In this document: positions 570-7,049 of the stretch, in pieces
How positions within the stretch are numbered: position 1 is the stretch's first letter
Layout of the letters: every line of letters begins with the position of its first letter
NCBI GenBank assembly: GCA_045598105.1
Contig: JAZLLK010000087.1
Location: forward strand, 11,772 to 75,771
Source: Bacteroidales bacterium
Lineage (GTDB): Bacteria; Bacteroidota; Bacteroidia; Bacteroidales; WCHB1-69
Length of the DNA stretch: 64,000 nt
Direction of reading: 5' to 3'
Notes under the pieces: model-generated
Told to the model about the DNA's origin: nothing
What the model saw: the letters and a program-made list of their open reading frames with translations, nothing else
Database searches by the model: none
Position numbers and translations under genes: made by a program

Positions 570-1286
570 ATGGGAATTATTACCGATAAAATAAAAAATG
601 ATGTTCGCTTTCAGGAAGCGTTTAAATCATGTATGAATTGTGGCATGTGCACAGCCGTATGCCCTGCTGCCGAATTCTACCTGTATGACCCGCGAAATAT
701 ATGTAACATAGTTCAGCGCGGCAATGATGAAGAACTGGAAAAATTACTTCGCTCTAATGCCATTTGGTACTGCGGGCAATGTATGTCGTGTAAAACACGC
801 TGTCCTCGCGGTAATGCACCGGGAGTGGTAATAACCATACTGCGTTCCATTAGTCAGGAAATGGGATATTTTACTGATAGCGAAAAAGGAAGACAACAAT
901 ATGCCATAGAACAAATAGTAGGTAGCAATATACTTAATATAGGATATTGTGTACATCCTGACACGGTAGATCCTGATTTGCACCCCGAGCAGGGGCCGGT
1001 GTGGTCATGGTTTGTAAAAAACATAGACGCCCTTAGTGAAAAAATGGGTATTAACTGGAAAAAGGAAGGCGCCGGTGCCTTAAGAAATATTAGTAGGGAA
1101 AATTTGGACGAAATGAAGAAAATATTTGACGTAACCGGTGGCACCGAACTGAGAAAACGCATAGAACAATATTCCGAAGAAAAAGCTAAAGAGCTTAATA
1201 TAAGTACTACACGTGAAGAAAATAAAAAATACAGCGACTATTTGATGAACACCATGACCCAAAACAATAACCAACATTGTAAATAA
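570..1286 (+). CDS. HdrC-like 2x[4Fe-4S] protein
   Basis: Two CxxCxxCxxxCP motifs (CMNCGMCTAVCP and CGQCMSCKTRCP), spaced as in heterodisulfide reductase subunit C. First gene of a tightly packed operon. Confidence 0.75.
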   Translation: MGIITDKIKNDVRFQEAFKSCMNCGMCTAVCPAAEFYLYDPRNICNIVQRGNDEELEKLLRSNAIWYCGQCMSCKTRCPRGNAPGVVITILRSISQEMGYFTDSEKGRQQYAIEQIVGSNILNIGYCVHPDTVDPDLHPEQGPVWSWFVKNIDALSEKMGINWKKEGAGALRNISRENLDEMKKIFDVTGGTELRKRIEQYSEEKAKELNISTTREENKKYSDYLMNTMTQNNNQHCK

Positions 1287-1291
1287 TAATT

Positions 1292-2353
1292 ATGGAACAT
1301 AAAAAACGTTTTTGGAACGAATATCAAAAGGACATAGCTGACGATCACTATTTTTTTGCCCGCAGTTGCATACGTCAAAGTTTTAACCCCGGTGCCGAAG
1401 CCATGTTTTTAACCATGCTGAAAAACGACTTACATAAAGATATTATAGATGATGCTAATCAACATACCTGCACCGGTATAGGCTACCATTCCGACGTGGT
1501 TCCCTTTTACACTACCGCTACCATTATGGCTCGCCTGTTCTCACTCATGACCGAATTAGGCTATAAAAATTACGTTCCGTCATGTGTTACCTCCTTTGGC
1601 TTATACGTGGAAGTGCTGGAAACATGGAAAAACGAACCCGAAACTTTGGAAAAAACAAGGGAATACCTGTACCAAGCCTGCAAACGGGAATTTGAAGTAC
1701 CTGAAAATATAGCTCACGCATCAGATATTATATATAAATTTCGTAATGAGCTAAAAGCTAAAATGAAATATCAGCTTATTAACAAAAAAACAGGAAAACC
1801 CCTTAGAGGTGTAGAACATGTGGGCTGCCACTATGCTAAAGTATTTCCTTCCTTTGGTGAAGGTGGTGCCGAATTTCCTTATGTATTGGCAGGCCTTATA
1901 GAAGCATGGGGAGGCGAAGTAATAGACTACCCTGAACGCCGCCACTGCTGCGGATTCGGCTTTAGAAACTATCTGGTTCAATCTAACCGCGGCTATTCTA
2001 TTAATAATACCCATAAAAAACTGGAATCTATGGAACCTTATCATCCTGATTTTATACTTACCAATTGCCCGGGATGTAACATGTTTATAGACCGTTGGCA
2101 ATACACCATAGCCGAAATGGAACACAAAACATATGATACGGAAGGTAAAGGTATACCTGTGCTTTCACATGAAGAACTGGCTGCCCTGCTCATGGGCTAC
2201 GACCCATGGAAAATAGGCTTACAACTGCATCAGGTACAATGTGAATCTTTAATGGACAAAATAGGAATAGAATATAATCCGGCTGAAAAATATGCCGATA
2301 GCAAAGGTAATTTGCTTACACCTCCCGAAAAACCTGATTTTTTAAAAATTTAA
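1292..2353 (+). CDS. HdrB-like CCG-domain protein
   Basis: The C-terminal CCG domain is intact (GCHYAKV...RHCCGFGF...TNCPGCN). The N-terminal copy is degenerate (CIRQ...HTCTGIG...PSCVTS). Confidence 0.7.
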   Translation: MEHKKRFWNEYQKDIADDHYFFARSCIRQSFNPGAEAMFLTMLKNDLHKDIIDDANQHTCTGIGYHSDVVPFYTTATIMARLFSLMTELGYKNYVPSCVTSFGLYVEVLETWKNEPETLEKTREYLYQACKREFEVPENIAHASDIIYKFRNELKAKMKYQLINKKTGKPLRGVEHVGCHYAKVFPSFGEGGAEFPYVLAGLIEAWGGEVIDYPERRHCCGFGFRNYLVQSNRGYSINNTHKKLESMEPYHPDFILTNCPGCNMFIDRWQYTIAEMEHKTYDTEGKGIPVLSHEELAALLMGYDPWKIGLQLHQVQCESLMDKIGIEYNPAEKYADSKGNLLTPPEKPDFLKI

Positions 2354-2369
2354 CTTTTAAGCAAAGAAT

Positions 2370-3392
2370 ATGAACAATATAGACGTTATCATAATAGGCG
2401 GCGGTCCTGCCGGTATTCAAGCTGCCATCCGCTTGGGACAATTCACCTGTAAAACCCTCATTATAGAAAAAGAAAACACCATAGGCGGTAAACTTACCCA
2501 ATGGGATAAGCTGTTTCCTGATTTTTATTCGGCAGAAGAACTTTTACAACATTTAAGTGCCCGGCTGAATGAAAATGTAAGTATTATTACCTCCCAAGCC
2601 GTTACTGATATTAATCATACTGATAACATATGGACAGTTACCACTGCCAATAACTCCTCTTATACAGCTAAAGCTGTATTGCTGGCCAGTGGCTATGACT
2701 TTTTTGACGCTAAACGAAAAGAAGAATTTGGTTATGGCATATACCCTAATGTAATTACCTCTGTAGAACTGGAAGCCATGATAAAAAATGGCAACATACA
2801 TACTCTGGATGGTCGTACACCACAAAGAATAGCTTATTTACAATGTGTGGGATCACGTGACGAAAAAGTAGGCAACCACTACTGCTCTATTAACTGCTGT
2901 ATATGTGCCGTAAAACAAAGCATAGAAGTACGGGAACTCCTACCTGAAGTAGAACAATACTGCTTTTATATGGATTTACGTATGGCAGGCCAACATTATG
3001 AAGAACTCTATAGAAAAGCACAAGAAAAATACAATGTACAATTTATACGCGGGCGCGTATCGGAAGCTGCTGCCACTATAGACCATCGTATACAAATAAA
3101 AGCAGAAAATACCCTGCTTTCTACTCCATTAAAACTTACGGTGGATCTGTTTGTACTTATGATAGGTATGGAAGCCGGCCACACTACACGCTACATAAGC
3201 CAAAAATTCAACATTAATAATAACTACGGATTTTTGCAAAGCAAACAACGTTATTACAATGATAATGAAACCGAATTGGAAGGCCTGTTTTTAGCAGGTA
3301 CCTGCAAACGTCCCATGACTATTCCCAAGTCACTCAAAGATGGTGATGCAGCCGCCAATGCCGTGTTTACTTATATTCAAAACATAAAATAA
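2370..3392 (+). CDS. HdrA-like FAD-dependent oxidoreductase (short form)
   Basis: IIIGGGPAGIQAA dinucleotide fold plus the HdrA-type cysteine signature CVGSRDEKVGNHYCSINCC. At 340 aa it lacks the ferredoxin inserts of full-length HdrA. Confidence 0.7.
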   Translation: MNNIDVIIIGGGPAGIQAAIRLGQFTCKTLIIEKENTIGGKLTQWDKLFPDFYSAEELLQHLSARLNENVSIITSQAVTDINHTDNIWTVTTANNSSYTAKAVLLASGYDFFDAKRKEEFGYGIYPNVITSVELEAMIKNGNIHTLDGRTPQRIAYLQCVGSRDEKVGNHYCSINCCICAVKQSIEVRELLPEVEQYCFYMDLRMAGQHYEELYRKAQEKYNVQFIRGRVSEAAATIDHRIQIKAENTLLSTPLKLTVDLFVLMIGMEAGHTTRYISQKFNINNNYGFLQSKQRYYNDNETELEGLFLAGTCKRPMTIPKSLKDGDAAANAVFTYIQNIK

Positions 3393-3736
3393 TGAAAGAT
3401 TTTGGATTTAACTTATATAAAGGTCGTACTCTTGATTATGACAACTGCGATTTTTCACTAAAGAAAAATTTAGAACAACAGGTTCCGTCATATAAACGCT
3501 GTATAGGTTGTGGCGCCTGCGCCTCATCATGCTCTGCCGCCAAATTCACTAACTTCAGCATAGTAAAATGTAATATGCTTTTTCGCAATGCCAAATATGA
3601 TGACTTAAAACAGGAACTTGACAAATGTATGCTATGCGGAAAATGCACTATAATATGCCCCAGAGGTGTAAATATACGCCGTATGATATTAGAAATGAGA
3701 AATTTAATAGAAAAACACACACATAATAATGAATAA
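3392..3736 (+). CDS. 2x[4Fe-4S] ferredoxin-domain protein
   Basis: CIGCGACASSC and CMLCGKCTIICP motifs. TAATG overlap with the upstream gene. Confidence 0.75.
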   Translation: MKDFGFNLYKGRTLDYDNCDFSLKKNLEQQVPSYKRCIGCGACASSCSAAKFTNFSIVKCNMLFRNAKYDDLKQELDKCMLCGKCTIICPRGVNIRRMILEMRNLIEKHTHNNE

Positions 3737-5498
3737 TTATCATCCGTTTGTTCTTCCTTTTTTTATAGGAACTATTATACTATTTGCTATTCTTATAGGT
3801 CTTTTTGCAAAATGGCTTATACAAATGGACAAACACCAACAAAAAACTGCTCTTAAAAATATTATCAGTTTTAAAACCATTAAAGCTATATGGGAAGCTA
3901 TAAGAGAATGCTTATTCCATAGAAATATATTCCGTACTAATCCCGTATTAGGCTATATGCACCTTAGCTTTGCCTTTGGCTGGTTTTTACTAATAGTAAT
4001 AGGTAAAATAGAAACCACCTTCTATAGCCGTACATTTTTTGATGAATTTTGGCTGGCCATATTCTTCCGCTACTTTGAAGATACTTCCATAAGTTTTACT
4101 GCCAGCCACTTACTTACTACCATAATGGATGCCTGCCTGCTTTTTGTATTATCAGGTGTGTGTATGGCTATAATTAAGCGTTTTTATTCCAAAATGTATG
4201 GTATGAAAAAAACTACCAAACACACCACTATTGATCGCATAGCCCTGGCTTCATTATGGTGTATATTTCCTTTTAGATTGCTGGCCGAAAGTATTACTGC
4301 AGGCATAAAACATAACGGAGGCTTTCTTACTCAAACATTGGGCAATGCCCTTAGTTTTTTACCATTAGAACAAATACAACTGCCCATGTGGTGGCTTTAC
4401 TCTATAGCCTTATGTACTTTTTTCATATTCATGCCTTTTACCCGTTATATGCATATATTTACCGAAGTACTTTTAATATTTTTGCGTAAATGGGGCGTTA
4501 CCGAAAATAATTACAAAACAGGTTATACTTCCATAGAAATGAATGCCTGCTCCCGCTGTGGAATTTGCTTGGACGTGTGTCCGCTTAATACCGAAGCAGG
4601 TATTAATAATGTACAATCGGTATATTTTATCAAAAATGCCCGCTATGGTACACTCACAAGCGATGTAGCCGATAACTGCCTTATGTGTGGTAGATGTTCT
4701 CAAGCTTGCCCTGTAGGACTGGAATCTACTAAAATAAGACAAATTATGCGTAAAAAAGAGCAATTTAATAACCATGATTATTATCAATATATACCTGAAA
4801 ATATAGCTGCTCATAATGAAGAAGTAATATATTTTGCCGGATGTATGTCACATATTACTACTTCCATTCCCATAGCTATGCAACATATATTTAAGGCAGC
4901 CAATGTAAAATACTGGTACATGGATGAACATGAAACCATGTGTTGCGGTCGTCCTCTTATGCAACAAGGACTTGATAAACAGGCTGAAATATTAAGAAAT
5001 AAAAATACCAAAGCTATTTTAGATTCAGGTATTGCTACTTTGGTTACTTCATGTCCTATTTGCTATAAATCATTTAAAGAAGAATATAACTTACCTATAA
5101 AGGTAATGCACCATACTCAATATATAGAACATCTTATAAAACAAGGAAAACTGAAAGTAAAAAAATCAGATATAAAGGTTACTTATCATGACCCCTGTGA
5201 ATTGGGAAGAGGATGTAATATATATGACGAACCACGTAATATATTGAATTCCGTATCACAATTAATGAGTGTGAAAATGGAAAAAGAAAACAGCTTGTGC
5301 TGCGGTTATAACCTGGCCAATACCAAACTGGAACTAAGTGAGCAAATGAAAATAAGAAACAATACTCTTAATAACCTTACACAACCTCATCCTGATACTG
5401 TAGTTACAGCCTGCCCTATGTGTAAAAGAGCACTGCAACACGGTACTTTAACTAATGTAAAAGATATAGCTGAAATAGTTACCGAACATATTTTATAA
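3729..5498 (+). CDS. Membrane-anchored Fe-S/CCG protein (NarI/DsrM-like TM domain fused to a DsrK/HdrD-like domain)
   Basis: The N-terminal ~250 aa are hydrophobic, with conserved-looking His residues (GYMHLSF, PFTRYMHIF). These are followed by CSRCGICLDVCP and CLMCGRCSQACP, then two CCG domains (FAGCM..MCCGRP..SCPICY; HDPCELG..LCCGYN..ACPMCK). It overlaps the upstream gene by 8 nt. Confidence 0.7.
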   Translation: MNNYHPFVLPFFIGTIILFAILIGLFAKWLIQMDKHQQKTALKNIISFKTIKAIWEAIRECLFHRNIFRTNPVLGYMHLSFAFGWFLLIVIGKIETTFYSRTFFDEFWLAIFFRYFEDTSISFTASHLLTTIMDACLLFVLSGVCMAIIKRFYSKMYGMKKTTKHTTIDRIALASLWCIFPFRLLAESITAGIKHNGGFLTQTLGNALSFLPLEQIQLPMWWLYSIALCTFFIFMPFTRYMHIFTEVLLIFLRKWGVTENNYKTGYTSIEMNACSRCGICLDVCPLNTEAGINNVQSVYFIKNARYGTLTSDVADNCLMCGRCSQACPVGLESTKIRQIMRKKEQFNNHDYYQYIPENIAAHNEEVIYFAGCMSHITTSIPIAMQHIFKAANVKYWYMDEHETMCCGRPLMQQGLDKQAEILRNKNTKAILDSGIATLVTSCPICYKSFKEEYNLPIKVMHHTQYIEHLIKQGKLKVKKSDIKVTYHDPCELGRGCNIYDEPRNILNSVSQLMSVKMEKENSLCCGYNLANTKLELSEQMKIRNNTLNNLTQPHPDTVVTACPMCKRALQHGTLTNVKDIAEIVTEHIL

Positions 5499-5697
5499 TA
5501 CAAAATCATATAAATGAACCATTGTTAATAAATAAAAATAATAAAAATAATAAAACACTAAATTTCAATAACTTAAAAAAAATATTTAAAAGGCTTATTT
5601 ATAGATATATATATAAAAAAAAGGTTGCAAGTATTTTACTGTAAATATATTATAAATTATCAACATAGTAATGTTTATATCCGTTTTATAACATTTT

Positions 5698-5740
5698 AAA
5701 ACATGTTCAAAACTTAGTTTTGAACATGTTTTAATTTTTT
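5698..5740 (+). terminator. Intrinsic terminator (17-bp perfect palindrome plus T-run)
   Basis: AAAACATGTTCAAAACT/T/AGTTTTGAACATGTTTT followed by AATTTTTT, about 200 nt after the operon stop. Confidence 0.6.
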
Positions 5741-5900
5741 ATAAGCAAAATAATAAACAATTTTAAACTGTATAAATATCTATAACACTTATTAAAAAAA
5801 ACTTTTCAACTGTTTTAACATTGTTATATACTATCACACTCTTTAAAAAAAATGAAATAAACCTATAATAATAACGAACATAAAATCATAAAAAATATGC

Positions 5901-6849: not shown

Positions 6850-7013
6850 TGTAGTCAAATATGTTAATTTAGTAAAGCACAAGTAAAAGTAATAAATTAT
6901 TATATATAAAATATTTTATTTTTTTTTACTTGAAAAAAATAAAAATATATAAATTTGTAAAGTAATATGTTTGCTATATATGTAAAAAATTATAAGCATA
7001 GCAGTATTTTATT

Positions 7014-7049
7014 TGTTTCTGCCTTACATAGGCAGAAACAAAATTTTTT
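7014..7049. terminator. Bidirectional terminator hairpin between nadA and comM
   Basis: TGTTTCTGCC-ttacata-GGCAGAAACA followed by AAATTTTTT. Confidence 0.6.

Follow-up and report, generated by a model that had tools for sequence, protein, structure and literature searches.

Hdr-like complexes hold a central place in methanogenesis, in sulfate reduction and in the oxidation of sulfur. Among the described members, the sHdr systems are the closest known relatives of the locus considered here, five genes at positions 570–5498 of a 64,000-nt stretch of Bacteroidales DNA (the window, on which all coordinates are based). Two gene orders have been published for sHdr, shdrC1B1AHC2B2 (type I) and shdrC1B1AHB3-etfAB-emo (type II), the second of which is a precedent for the passage of sulfur-derived electrons to menaquinone. 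sHdrB1 is the proposed catalytic subunit and sHdrB2 is described as having ‘two classical non-cubane clusters’. According to published descriptions, a link to lbpA is ‘inevitably’ present in sHdr systems, and sulfur transferases (TusA, DsrE or rhodanese) always go with them, 50–90% of these being encoded inside the clusters. On balance, the five genes of the window appear to encode a membrane-anchored, menaquinone-linked sHdr-like complex, which would oxidise a cytoplasmic thiol or sulfane sulfur and reduce menaquinone.

A further point of comparison is EMO/EtfD, the ETF:(methyl)menaquinone oxidoreductase known from M. smegmatis (PDB 9OJN) and S. aciditrophicus. Its single chain has three domains: one is NarI-like with five transmembrane (TM) helices, the second is dicubane and HdrC-like, and the third is non-cubane and HdrB-like. 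In SaEMO the ligands of the proximal heme (bP) are H87 and H251 and the distal ligand is H233; all three are conserved in EMO-like domains (EMO preprint). A His in the first CxxC of EMO sits in the HdrB substrate site, both EMOs lack one CCG cysteine, and MsEMO reduces menaquinone without energetic coupling (EMO preprint).

The five genes of the window are intact and are read, with the domains of the last, as follows:
570–1286, + strand: ORF1, HdrC1-like dicubane ferredoxin, 238 aa (Fer4_8 match, Fer4 dicluster)
1292–2353, + strand: ORF2, HdrB1-like protein, 353 aa (single Pfam CCG match; best match HdrB)
2370–3392, + strand: ORF3, short sHdrA-type flavoprotein, 340 aa, FAD and one [4Fe-4S] cluster (Pyr_redox_2, 6tjr alignment)
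3392–3736, + strand: ORF4, HdrC2-like dicubane ferredoxin, 114 aa (Fer4 dicluster)
3729–5498, + strand: ORF5, 589 aa, made up of the three domains below
3729–4493, + strand: ORF5 membrane domain, residues 1–255, five predicted TM helices (AF2 model, Foldseek, residue conservation)
4536–4721, + strand: ORF5 dicubane [4Fe-4S] domain, C274/277/280/284 and C317/320/323/327 (Fer4 matches, all eight Cys invariant)
4821–5486, + strand: ORF5 double CCG (non-cubane-cluster) domain (two Pfam CCG stretches, 9ojn alignment)

The first two junctions are gaps, of 5 and then 16 nt; at the other two the genes overlap, in a TAATG at 3392 and by 8 nt at 3729–3736. An earlier note on this DNA gave the same coordinates and junctions, save for the first gap, which it put at 6 nt. 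Its general description, a soluble HdrCBA-type module and a membrane cytochrome-b-like/HdrD-type fusion in one operon of a Bacteroidota genome, agrees with the domain architecture and with the taxonomy of the homologues.

Domains were called by Pfam and NCBIfam searches, with the NCBIfam equivalog cut-offs as the threshold of membership. Relatives were taken from a pattern scan of a one-genome-per-species collection, which found at least 599 stretches, at least 595 of them confirmed; the locus analyses (tblastn, ORF clustering) cover the best 80 of the at least 599 matches. The domain searches are in line with the two [4Fe-4S] clusters that the earlier note gave to the HdrC-like ORF1 and to ORF4, and with its 4Fe-4S motifs and two CCG domains in ORF5. 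All NCBIfam matches of ORF1–5 fall far under the equivalog cut-offs, so none of the five proteins is an orthologue of a named enzyme. ORF1 is best matched by HdrC (85 bits against a cut-off of 270; PDB HdrC at E 2e-10), while its match to QmoC is 48.5 bits against 300. Its cysteines C21/24/27/31 and C68/71/74/78 are invariant; so is C127, which lies outside the recognised cluster motifs.

ORF2 matches HdrB with 145 bits against a cut-off of 450. Its C-terminal CCG site is classical and complete (C179, C219, C220, C259, C262), while the N-terminal site retains only C26, C60-T-G and C98-V-T-S. The earlier note recognised the intact copy and took the other, with CTG for CCG, to be degenerate. However, C26, C60-T/S-G and C98-x-T-S occur in 60 of 60 homologues, and with such strict conservation the N-terminal site is to be seen as non-classical, not as the product of decay. 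The C-x-T-S hallmark is common to the B1-type proteins of a few cyanobacteria, a deltaproteobacterial metagenome-assembled genome (MAG) and some archaeal MAGs, and to an Acidithiobacillus HdrB-like protein encoded near a GcvH/LbpA-type gene; more distant HdrBs retain CxxC at this position. In the two solved EMOs one Cys has been lost from the corresponding motif, giving a [3Fe-4S] or [4Fe-5S] cluster (EMO cryo-EM preprint). Since this loss alters the EMO cluster, an altered ORF2 cluster with an open position can reasonably be expected, and the Cys-poor site could, by analogy, leave an iron or cluster position free for a sulfur substrate.

Residues 6–333 of ORF3 align in one piece with residues 4–337 of 6tjr, the 349-aa sHdrA of Hyphomicrobium denitrificans (197 bits). 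Methanogen HdrA and HdrA2 align in two pieces only, their inserted domains being skipped, and the HdrA2 score is 247 against a cut-off of 1100. The cysteines of the CVGSRD...YCSxxCC motif (C159, C172, C176, C177) are invariant across the 60–78 homologues compared. ORF3 had been described before as a short HdrA-like protein with this signature and no ferredoxin inserts; the invariant motif and the two-piece HdrA match fit that description. By these alignments and motifs, ORF1–3 constitute an sHdr-type C1-B1-A module.

ORF4 contains two invariant CxxCxxCxxxC motifs. Over residues 3–106 it shares 29% identity with the C2 portion of a deltaproteobacterial C2B2 fusion and 25% with a cyanobacterial C2, both alignments taking in the N-terminus ahead of the first cluster motif, while C1-type proteins align over the iron–sulfur core only. 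On these alignments ORF4 is best read as a relative of HdrC2. It occupies the slot of sHdrH (‘hyp’) in the sHdr order, yet it is a dicluster ferredoxin. It lies immediately upstream of ORF5 in 77 of the 80 loci, also where hdrA is lacking. With its resemblance to HdrC2 and its attachment to ORF5 even without hdrA, ORF4 is not obviously the stand-in for the missing HdrA inserts that it had been suggested to be.

ORF5 residues 271–588 are homologous to the same deltaproteobacterial C2B2 fusion (24% identity, E 3e-26), and ORF5 is best read, at the level of sequence, as a C2B2-type protein with an acquired membrane domain. Its scores lie far from the cut-offs of named families (TfrB 116 against 385, DsrK 66.8 against 400, TmcB 44.7 against 735, HmcF 34.2 against 750). 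The PDB entry that best matches the full-length AF2 model (pLDDT 75), from end to end, is the M. smegmatis EtfD/EMO structure 9ojn (E 2e-16), with which the ORF5 family profile also aligns at residue level (E 5e-25). Modelled alone, the membrane domain reaches pLDDT 93.8 and pTM 0.88, and Foldseek matches it to 9ojn (prob 1.0, TMq 0.56) and next to NarI 3ir5_C (prob 0.90, TMq 0.43). Pfam gives no match of ORF5 to the NarI family (PF02665) at E<=0.01, NCBIfam gives none, and a profile of the TM domain has zero matches among PDB sequences at E<=10; the likeness of the modelled domain to NarI and EtfD is confined to the fold. The loops of ORF5 obey the positive-inside rule for a protein of five helices with its N-terminus out and its C-terminus in, a topology which would place the iron–sulfur domains in the cytoplasm.

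His78 (GYMHLSF, codon 3960–3962) and His242 (RYMHIF, 4452–4454) of ORF5 are invariant (78/78), and stand to SaEMO H87 and H251 at a constant offset of 9. Tyr224 (codon 4398–4400), likewise present in 78/78, stands at the position of the EMO distal His (H233). These positions suggest that ORF5 binds a single cytoplasm-side (proximal) heme b, with His78 and His242 as putative ligands. Of the NarI/DsrM-like cytochrome b proposed in the earlier note, the invariant His motifs and a likeness at the level of fold are retained, but not membership of PF02665 nor a di-heme character, the distal site being occupied by Tyr. All ten CCG cysteines of ORF5 are invariant (C372, C405, C406, C442, C445; C490, C524, C525, C562, C565). 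The first CxxC reads C442-P-I444-C445, where the invariant Ile444 contrasts with His583 of 9ojn (C581-P-H583-C584); with all ten cysteines and Ile444, ORF5 resembles catalytic HdrB/HdrD in that respect. H64, H461, H462 and H487 are also invariant, outside the recognised cluster and heme motifs, and the HH and YHDPC histidines of ORF5 are aligned with the same residues in mycobacterial EMO.

Homologues of ORF5, 585–640 aa in length, number thousands from Bacteroidales and are named at best ‘(Fe-S)-binding protein’. The best 80 loci belong to Bacteroidia, bar one short contig labelled Clostridia, and come from Rikenellaceae, Alistipes, Butyricimonas, Tannerella, Paludibacteraceae, Prolixibacteraceae (including the cultured Gaoshiqia hydrogeniformans) and rumen Bacteroidaceae/Prevotellaceae; the hosts inhabit gut, rumen, digesters and sediments. 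The order of the window, C-B-A-Fdx-TM, is present in 31 of these loci and a permuted order, C-Fdx-TM-B-A, in 22, while the remaining loci are mostly cut by contig ends. In all, the five-gene set is found, in these two orders, in at least 595 genome hits (one genome per species), nearly all of them Bacteroidia. Its retention through rearrangement is good evidence of functional linkage between the five genes. Seven loci (L021, L024, L025, L027, L028, L029, L030) contain only the ORF4–ORF5 pair, among unrelated housekeeping neighbours; as this pair is kept together both there and through the rearrangement, it is the tighter one. The Clostridia-labelled contig (L037; JAZOOY010000052, 4.9 kb, from a MAG) is 48–68% identical to the window genes and has the rumen-type permuted order, and its label is probably a binning error rather than a sign of horizontal transfer.

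No LbpA or lipoate-maturation genes lie within 10 kb of the operon in the window, nor do they form a conserved family in the 80 loci. TusA, DsrE and rhodanese are likewise without a conserved family at the 80 loci (ORFs of at least 55 aa clustered), and EtfAB genes are found neither in the window flanks nor among the conserved neighbours of the 80 loci. The statement of the earlier note that the usual partners are not nearby holds for the window flanks and for the 80 related loci.

Like sHdr type I (Hyphomicrobium, Acidithiobacillus, Aquifex), the locus has C1-B1-A followed by a small gene and then by the C2/B2 functions. In both, HdrA is short (~340 aa, with FAD and one [4Fe-4S] and an end-to-end alignment to 6TJR), B1 is non-classical and both CCG sites of the B2-type part are classical. 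It differs in the fusion of C2B2 to a five-helix cytochrome-b-like domain, in the ferredoxin at the ‘H’ slot, in the absence of LbpA, lipoate-maturation, TusA, DsrE and rhodanese genes (80 loci here) and in its anaerobic, fermenting hosts; B1 is ~27% identical to the single Acidithiobacillus-type HdrB-like protein compared. The plasmid collection contained no canonical sHdr reference cluster, only the lone Acidithiobacillus HdrB-like gene near gcvH. With type II the locus shares the C1-B1-A core and a fused C2-B2-type protein, and an EMO-type route to menaquinone has been proposed for that system. Here, however, the fusion and the membrane domain are joined in one chain, ORF5, which has both CCG sites as against one in B3, and EtfAB, LbpA and sulfur transferase genes are absent from the 80 loci. 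Assignment to canonical sHdr of either type was set aside because of this mismatch in gene set: LbpA and transferases are lacking at the 80 loci, C2 and B2 are not separate, and there is no B3 with etfAB and emo. The absence of EtfAB likewise led to the rejection of an EMO system or sHdr type II.

EMO/EtfD is the best PDB match of ORF5 by sequence and by fold, and the proximal heme pair is conserved between them. They differ in that the distal His is an invariant Tyr in ORF5, that the CCG motifs are complete in ORF5 whereas one Cys is absent in EMOs (with CPIC in place of CPHC), and that here an Hdr C-B-A module with a ferredoxin stands in the place of ETF. HdrDE (Methanosarcina) and DsrMK/HmeCD (sulfate reducers) also combine a cytochrome b part with an HdrD/DsrK-type dicubane/CCG protein, and HdrD has the full double CCG motif seen in ORF5. 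In ORF5, by contrast, the parts are in one chain, the scores are far under the family cut-offs and there are ligands for one heme only; neither CoM/CoB nor DsrC/DsrAB context is present, and the host is a bacterium whose chemistry is that of menaquinone. DsrMK, HmeCD, TmcBC and HmcF were rejected on the low equivalog scores of ORF5 and on missing partner genes, and a NarI/DsrM/HdrE di-heme cytochrome b because there is no PF02665 match and one conserved His pair is present as against four His.

The A, B and C subunits of methanogenic HdrABC are homologous to those of the window, and the FAD/[4Fe-4S] core of HdrA and the non-cubane cluster fold of HdrB are common to both. ORF3, in contrast, is without the ferredoxin domains that methanogen HdrA has at its N-terminus, as an insert and at its C-terminus (340 aa as against ~650), one HdrB CCG site is non-classical here, and neither a hydrogenase nor a formate dehydrogenase goes with the cluster; the 340-aa ORF3 and the scores for A (247 against 1100), B (145 against 450) and C (85 against 270) led to its rejection. 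QmoABC was dismissed because the locus has a single HdrA-like gene, a low QmoC score and no apr genes nearby, and Flx-Hdr because the flxABCD genes are absent and scores are low. Among the already assigned systems that the earlier note considered, Qmo, Tmc, Hme and Flx-Hdr do not fit, which leaves sHdr as the closest.

The closest relatives found outside Bacteroidia are soluble. On a plasmid of Picosynechococcus PCC 7003 (NZ_CP016476; L083 8227–13967), C1-B1-A-C2-B2 is followed by a gene for an FAD oxidoreductase; identity to ORF1–3 is 42–43% for the plasmid's C1, B1 and A (C1 against ORF1, 43%), and the sixth gene encodes an SQR/NDH-2-like flavoprotein with a weak SQR match (83 bits against 525). 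Close copies of B1 occur in Planktothrix and Phormidium. In the deltaproteobacterial MAG GCA_016928025 (L085 5028–10187), C1-B1-A is followed by a 422-aa soluble C2B2 fusion and an Amidohydro_2 gene. This second cluster lies inside a polysaccharide/lipopolysaccharide-type locus (flippase, hexapeptide transferases, PIG-L, LpxD, glycosyltransferases) and is a second case of a B1-type module in a biosynthetic context. C1, B1 and A of these cousins are 37–44% identical to their counterparts, their B1 has C-x-T-S, and the C2 and B2 functions come directly after C1-B1-A as in the window; they differ in having no membrane domain and no separate ORF4, and are uncharacterised.

In the favoured reading, a cytoplasmic thiol or sulfane-sulfur compound would be oxidised at the CCG sites of ORF2, and possibly at those of ORF5 too. 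ORF3, the FAD/[4Fe-4S] flavoprotein, would store and relay electrons, which would travel through the iron–sulfur chain and FAD to heme bP and on to menaquinone; the latter would be reoxidised by fumarate reductase. The membrane link would be provided by ORF4 and ORF5, an HdrC2-like ferredoxin and a single-chain HdrDE/EMO-like protein. A quinone link is the most reasonable reading of the model, because the top fold matches of the membrane domain are EtfD/EMO and NarI, and His78 and His242 stand at the EMO proximal-heme positions. By analogy with mycobacterial EMO, the menaquinone step is probably not coupled to a proton gradient, since the heme would be single and on the cytoplasmic side. Menaquinone has a potential of about −74 mV, while thiol/disulfide couples lie at −140 to −300 mV and sulfite/sulfide at about −116 mV. 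As these couples lie below menaquinone, electron flow to menaquinone would be downhill and the reverse would need energy coupling, of which the single proximal heme gives no sign. Flavin-based bifurcation, which the earlier note held possible beside a coupling to menaquinone, is unlikely by comparison with known HdrAs, because ORF3 has the architecture of sHdrA and is without the ferredoxin-type domains of methanogen HdrA; sHdrA reportedly has a stable semiquinone, which is said to be incompatible with bifurcation. The cysteate-synthase-like neighbours in the apparent operons of several relatives, described below, provide a sulfur context for the oxidation of sulfur compounds.

Several points weigh against this reading. 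Heme and quinone binding are deduced from one pair of histidines together with a fold match of modest quality (TMq 0.56), and neither Pfam nor the comparison of the TM profile with the PDB gives a NarI signal in the sequence of ORF5. With no LbpA, TusA or DsrE at the 80 loci, the analogy to sHdr may not reach as far as the substrate. The HdrD-type site of ORF5 is complete and unblocked, and its counterpart in HdrDE acts reductively; the seven of 80 loci with ORF4–ORF5 only indicate that the modules may work apart.

The genes around the operon in relatives belong to a few recurrent families. A VOC/glyoxalase-fold protein of ~357 aa is encoded at 28 loci (on the same strand within 150 bp in 21), an Spt-like alpha-oxoamine synthase at 20, a threonine/cysteate-synthase-like pyridoxal phosphate (PLP) enzyme at 20 and an SDR at 19. 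Where at least 4 kb are available on both sides (n=47), 26/47 loci have at least one of VOC, Spt, cysteate-synthase-like and SDR genes and 17/47 have one of the two PLP enzymes. Gaps between neighbours and the Hdr-like genes are 18–58 bp, on the same strand, in ~10 loci, and in several relatives the CapA/B/C-like and VOC neighbours apparently share an operon with the Hdr-like genes. The association survives varied arrangements, the neighbours lying upstream, downstream or on the opposite strand; example sets are at L002 10849–13461, L003 10851–16080, L013 3322–8059, and L045 2786–5461 and 10351–12319.

Three of these neighbours resemble the capnine/sulfobacin genes for the cysteate synthase CapA, the cysteate fatty-acyltransferase CapB and the 3-ketocapnine reductase CapC. 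Their scores are under the cut-offs (cysteate_syn 118 against 325, Spt 312 against 640) and the source annotations are generic. In a PDB search the threonine-synthase-like neighbour (f9) matches threonine synthases only and the VOC protein matches nothing, so that a sulfonolipid assignment would hold at family level only. There are no Cap-like or VOC neighbour genes within the 64 kb of the window, and many loci, including those of Alistipes and Butyricimonas, have no Cap-like neighbours nearby. Separately, about a dozen loci, mainly Prolixibacteraceae-like, have genes for a membrane HisKA_3 kinase and a NarL/LuxR-type response regulator directly upstream (for example L002 4054–5659, L050 96–1426, L057 3991–5587, L079 3838–5416), which suggests signal-dependent expression there; the window has an AraC-type gene instead.

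Other explanations of the locus have to be weighed against this evidence. It is rather unlikely that the complex is a menaquinol-dependent (hetero)disulfide reductase, possibly bifurcating or confurcating, in which ORF5 would act like HdrDE/DsrMK on a disulfide or trisulfide and HdrA would couple to a second low-potential carrier via ORF4. The ten retained CCG cysteines, the replacement by Ile444 of the site-blocking His of both solved EMOs, and the presence of an HdrA-family FAD protein beside a separate dicluster ferredoxin all speak for it. However, ORF3 is of sHdrA architecture and lacks the ferredoxin domains of bifurcating HdrA, ORF5 has proximal heme ligands only, ORF4 follows ORF5 and not hdrA in synteny, and neither DsrC/DsrAB-type nor CoM/CoB context is present. 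Menaquinol, moreover, does not have the reducing power for ordinary disulfides unless the reaction is coupled to an energy source, which counts against a reductase of this kind. An improbable explanation is a biosynthetic generator of sulfite or sulfonate in anaerobic Bacteroidia, in which sulfide-derived sulfane sulfur would be oxidised without oxygen to sulfite with electrons passing to menaquinone, and the sulfite used by cysteate synthase for a sulfonolipid of the capnine/sulfobacin type. Sulfite is the product assigned to sHdr, and it is the co-substrate of phosphoserine for cysteate synthase, which counts in favour. So do the 17/47 loci with a PLP neighbour, often together with SDR, the ~10 loci with same-strand gaps of 18–58 bp, and the persistence of the association through several rearrangements. 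Cysteate synthase, cysteate fatty-acyltransferase and 3-ketocapnine reductase make up the capnine/sulfobacin pathway. Yet the 64 kb of the window and many other loci have no such genes, the neighbours score well under their cut-offs and carry generic annotations, sulfur transferase and LbpA are missing, and the role of the VOC protein is unexplained. A previously unrecognised anaerobic, lipoate-independent and menaquinone-dependent sHdr-like route, from sulfide-derived sulfane sulfur to sulfite or from thiol to sulfonate, that feeds cysteate synthase and through it sulfonolipids in gut and rumen Bacteroidia is, for its part, doubtful.

The gene order, the fit of the short HdrA and the C-x-T-S of the Acidithiobacillus HdrB-like protein encoded near a GcvH/LbpA-type gene would suit a canonical dissimilatory sHdr whose LbpA, lipoate-maturation, TusA and DsrE genes lie elsewhere in the genome. 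This is quite improbable: LbpA or a sulfur transferase is found in 0/80 loci, the nearest non-Bacteroidia kin of B1 are cyanobacterial, deltaproteobacterial and archaeal whereas proteobacterial sulfur oxidisers stand at 27% identity, and the hosts are fermentative gut and rumen anaerobes. Finally, ORF4–ORF5 could be a quinone-linked oxidoreductase that merely adjoins a separate soluble enzyme, ORF1–3, as might be thought from the 7/80 loci with ORF4–ORF5 only and from the permuted order, which moves B-A and keeps ORF4–ORF5. There is very little to be expected of this explanation, since, whichever of the two orders they follow, the great majority of loci keep all five genes together, the ORF3/ORF4 and ORF4/ORF5 starts and stops overlap in the window, and the soluble cousins too keep C1-B1-A beside C2-B2.

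The expression signals around the five genes in the window are the following:
3–338, − strand: divergent gene, N-terminal 112 codons of a putative membrane-anchored AraC-type regulator (frame reading; gene exits the window edge)
399–440, + strand: tandem 21-nt direct repeat, TTTTTGCCGTTTCTTTACA x2, candidate site of an AraC-type regulator (repeat search, family D1)
472–541, + strand: two copies of AAAAAATGATAnCTTTGT, each with a Bacteroidetes-type −7 box (TAnnTTTG) (repeat family D2, kept in L081)
5696–5745, + strand: intrinsic-terminator-like hairpin, 18 bp stem followed by a T-run (~200 nt past the ORF5 stop)

The fragment of the divergent gene in the window has no Pfam match of its own; a complete 187-aa gene stands at the equivalent place in L081, a 92%-identical relative, and matches PF12833 (HTH_18/HTH_AraC). 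The intergenic region between the divergent gene and ORF1 is 230 nt long. The two 21-nt copies stand in perfect register between the operon and the divergent gene. The core of the repeat, TGCCGTTTCnTTACA, is kept in both copies in L081, with an identical T→A change in each. This shared change is as expected of a regulator binding site, and the repeats are a candidate binding site for the AraC-type regulator. The proximal −7 box, TAACTTTG, lies at ~533–540, ~30 nt 5′ of the ORF1 start; we take the TAnnTTTG boxes to be putative promoters from the Bacteroidetes consensus. A terminator scan of the + strand inside 570–5498 found nothing comparable to the hairpin at 5696–5745. Since the genes abut or overlap, with a promoter box 5′, a terminator 3′ and no internal terminator, ORF1–5 (570–5498) are probably one operon by gene layout. 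No Rfam elements, including riboswitches, were found near the operon in the window and seven relatives.

The flanks of the window encode housekeeping proteins (NadA, ComM/YifB, YbeY, MnmG, U32 peptidase and SSB). A second strong hairpin terminator lies at 7012–7042, between the convergent nadA and comM. Between 5000 and 7000, the intergenic DNA around nadA has a GC content of ~25% against 35–40% in the operon.

A literature search did not find this cluster described in Bacteroidales. Its component families are already known, as is a logic akin to that of sHdr type II and HdrDE/EMO. What appears to be new is the combination of C1-B1-A with a free C2-like ferredoxin and a putatively mono-heme, membrane-fused C2B2 that has a full, unblocked double CCG, without LbpA or ETF and almost only in Bacteroidia. 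Published sHdr surveys need C2B2 or B3 with etfAB in synteny and would therefore miss this cluster. As a natural hybrid of sHdr and HdrDE/EMO, with its unblocked double CCG on a putatively mono-heme membrane domain and its conserved Cys-poor site in B1, it is a useful test case for the way in which non-cubane clusters change between catalysis and electron transfer.

Gut bacterial sulfonolipids have been linked to TLR4 signalling in the host and to inflammatory bowel disease (PMC11525784). Gut and rumen Bacteroidia live on reduced sulfur and their source of sulfite is unexplained, and the apparent operon link to cysteate-synthase-like genes poses a testable question about the origin of the sulfite for these lipids. 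If electrons do pass from sulfur or thiol compounds to menaquinone, the complex would feed the fumarate-respiring electron transport chain of dominant gut anaerobes by an entry point so far unrecognised.

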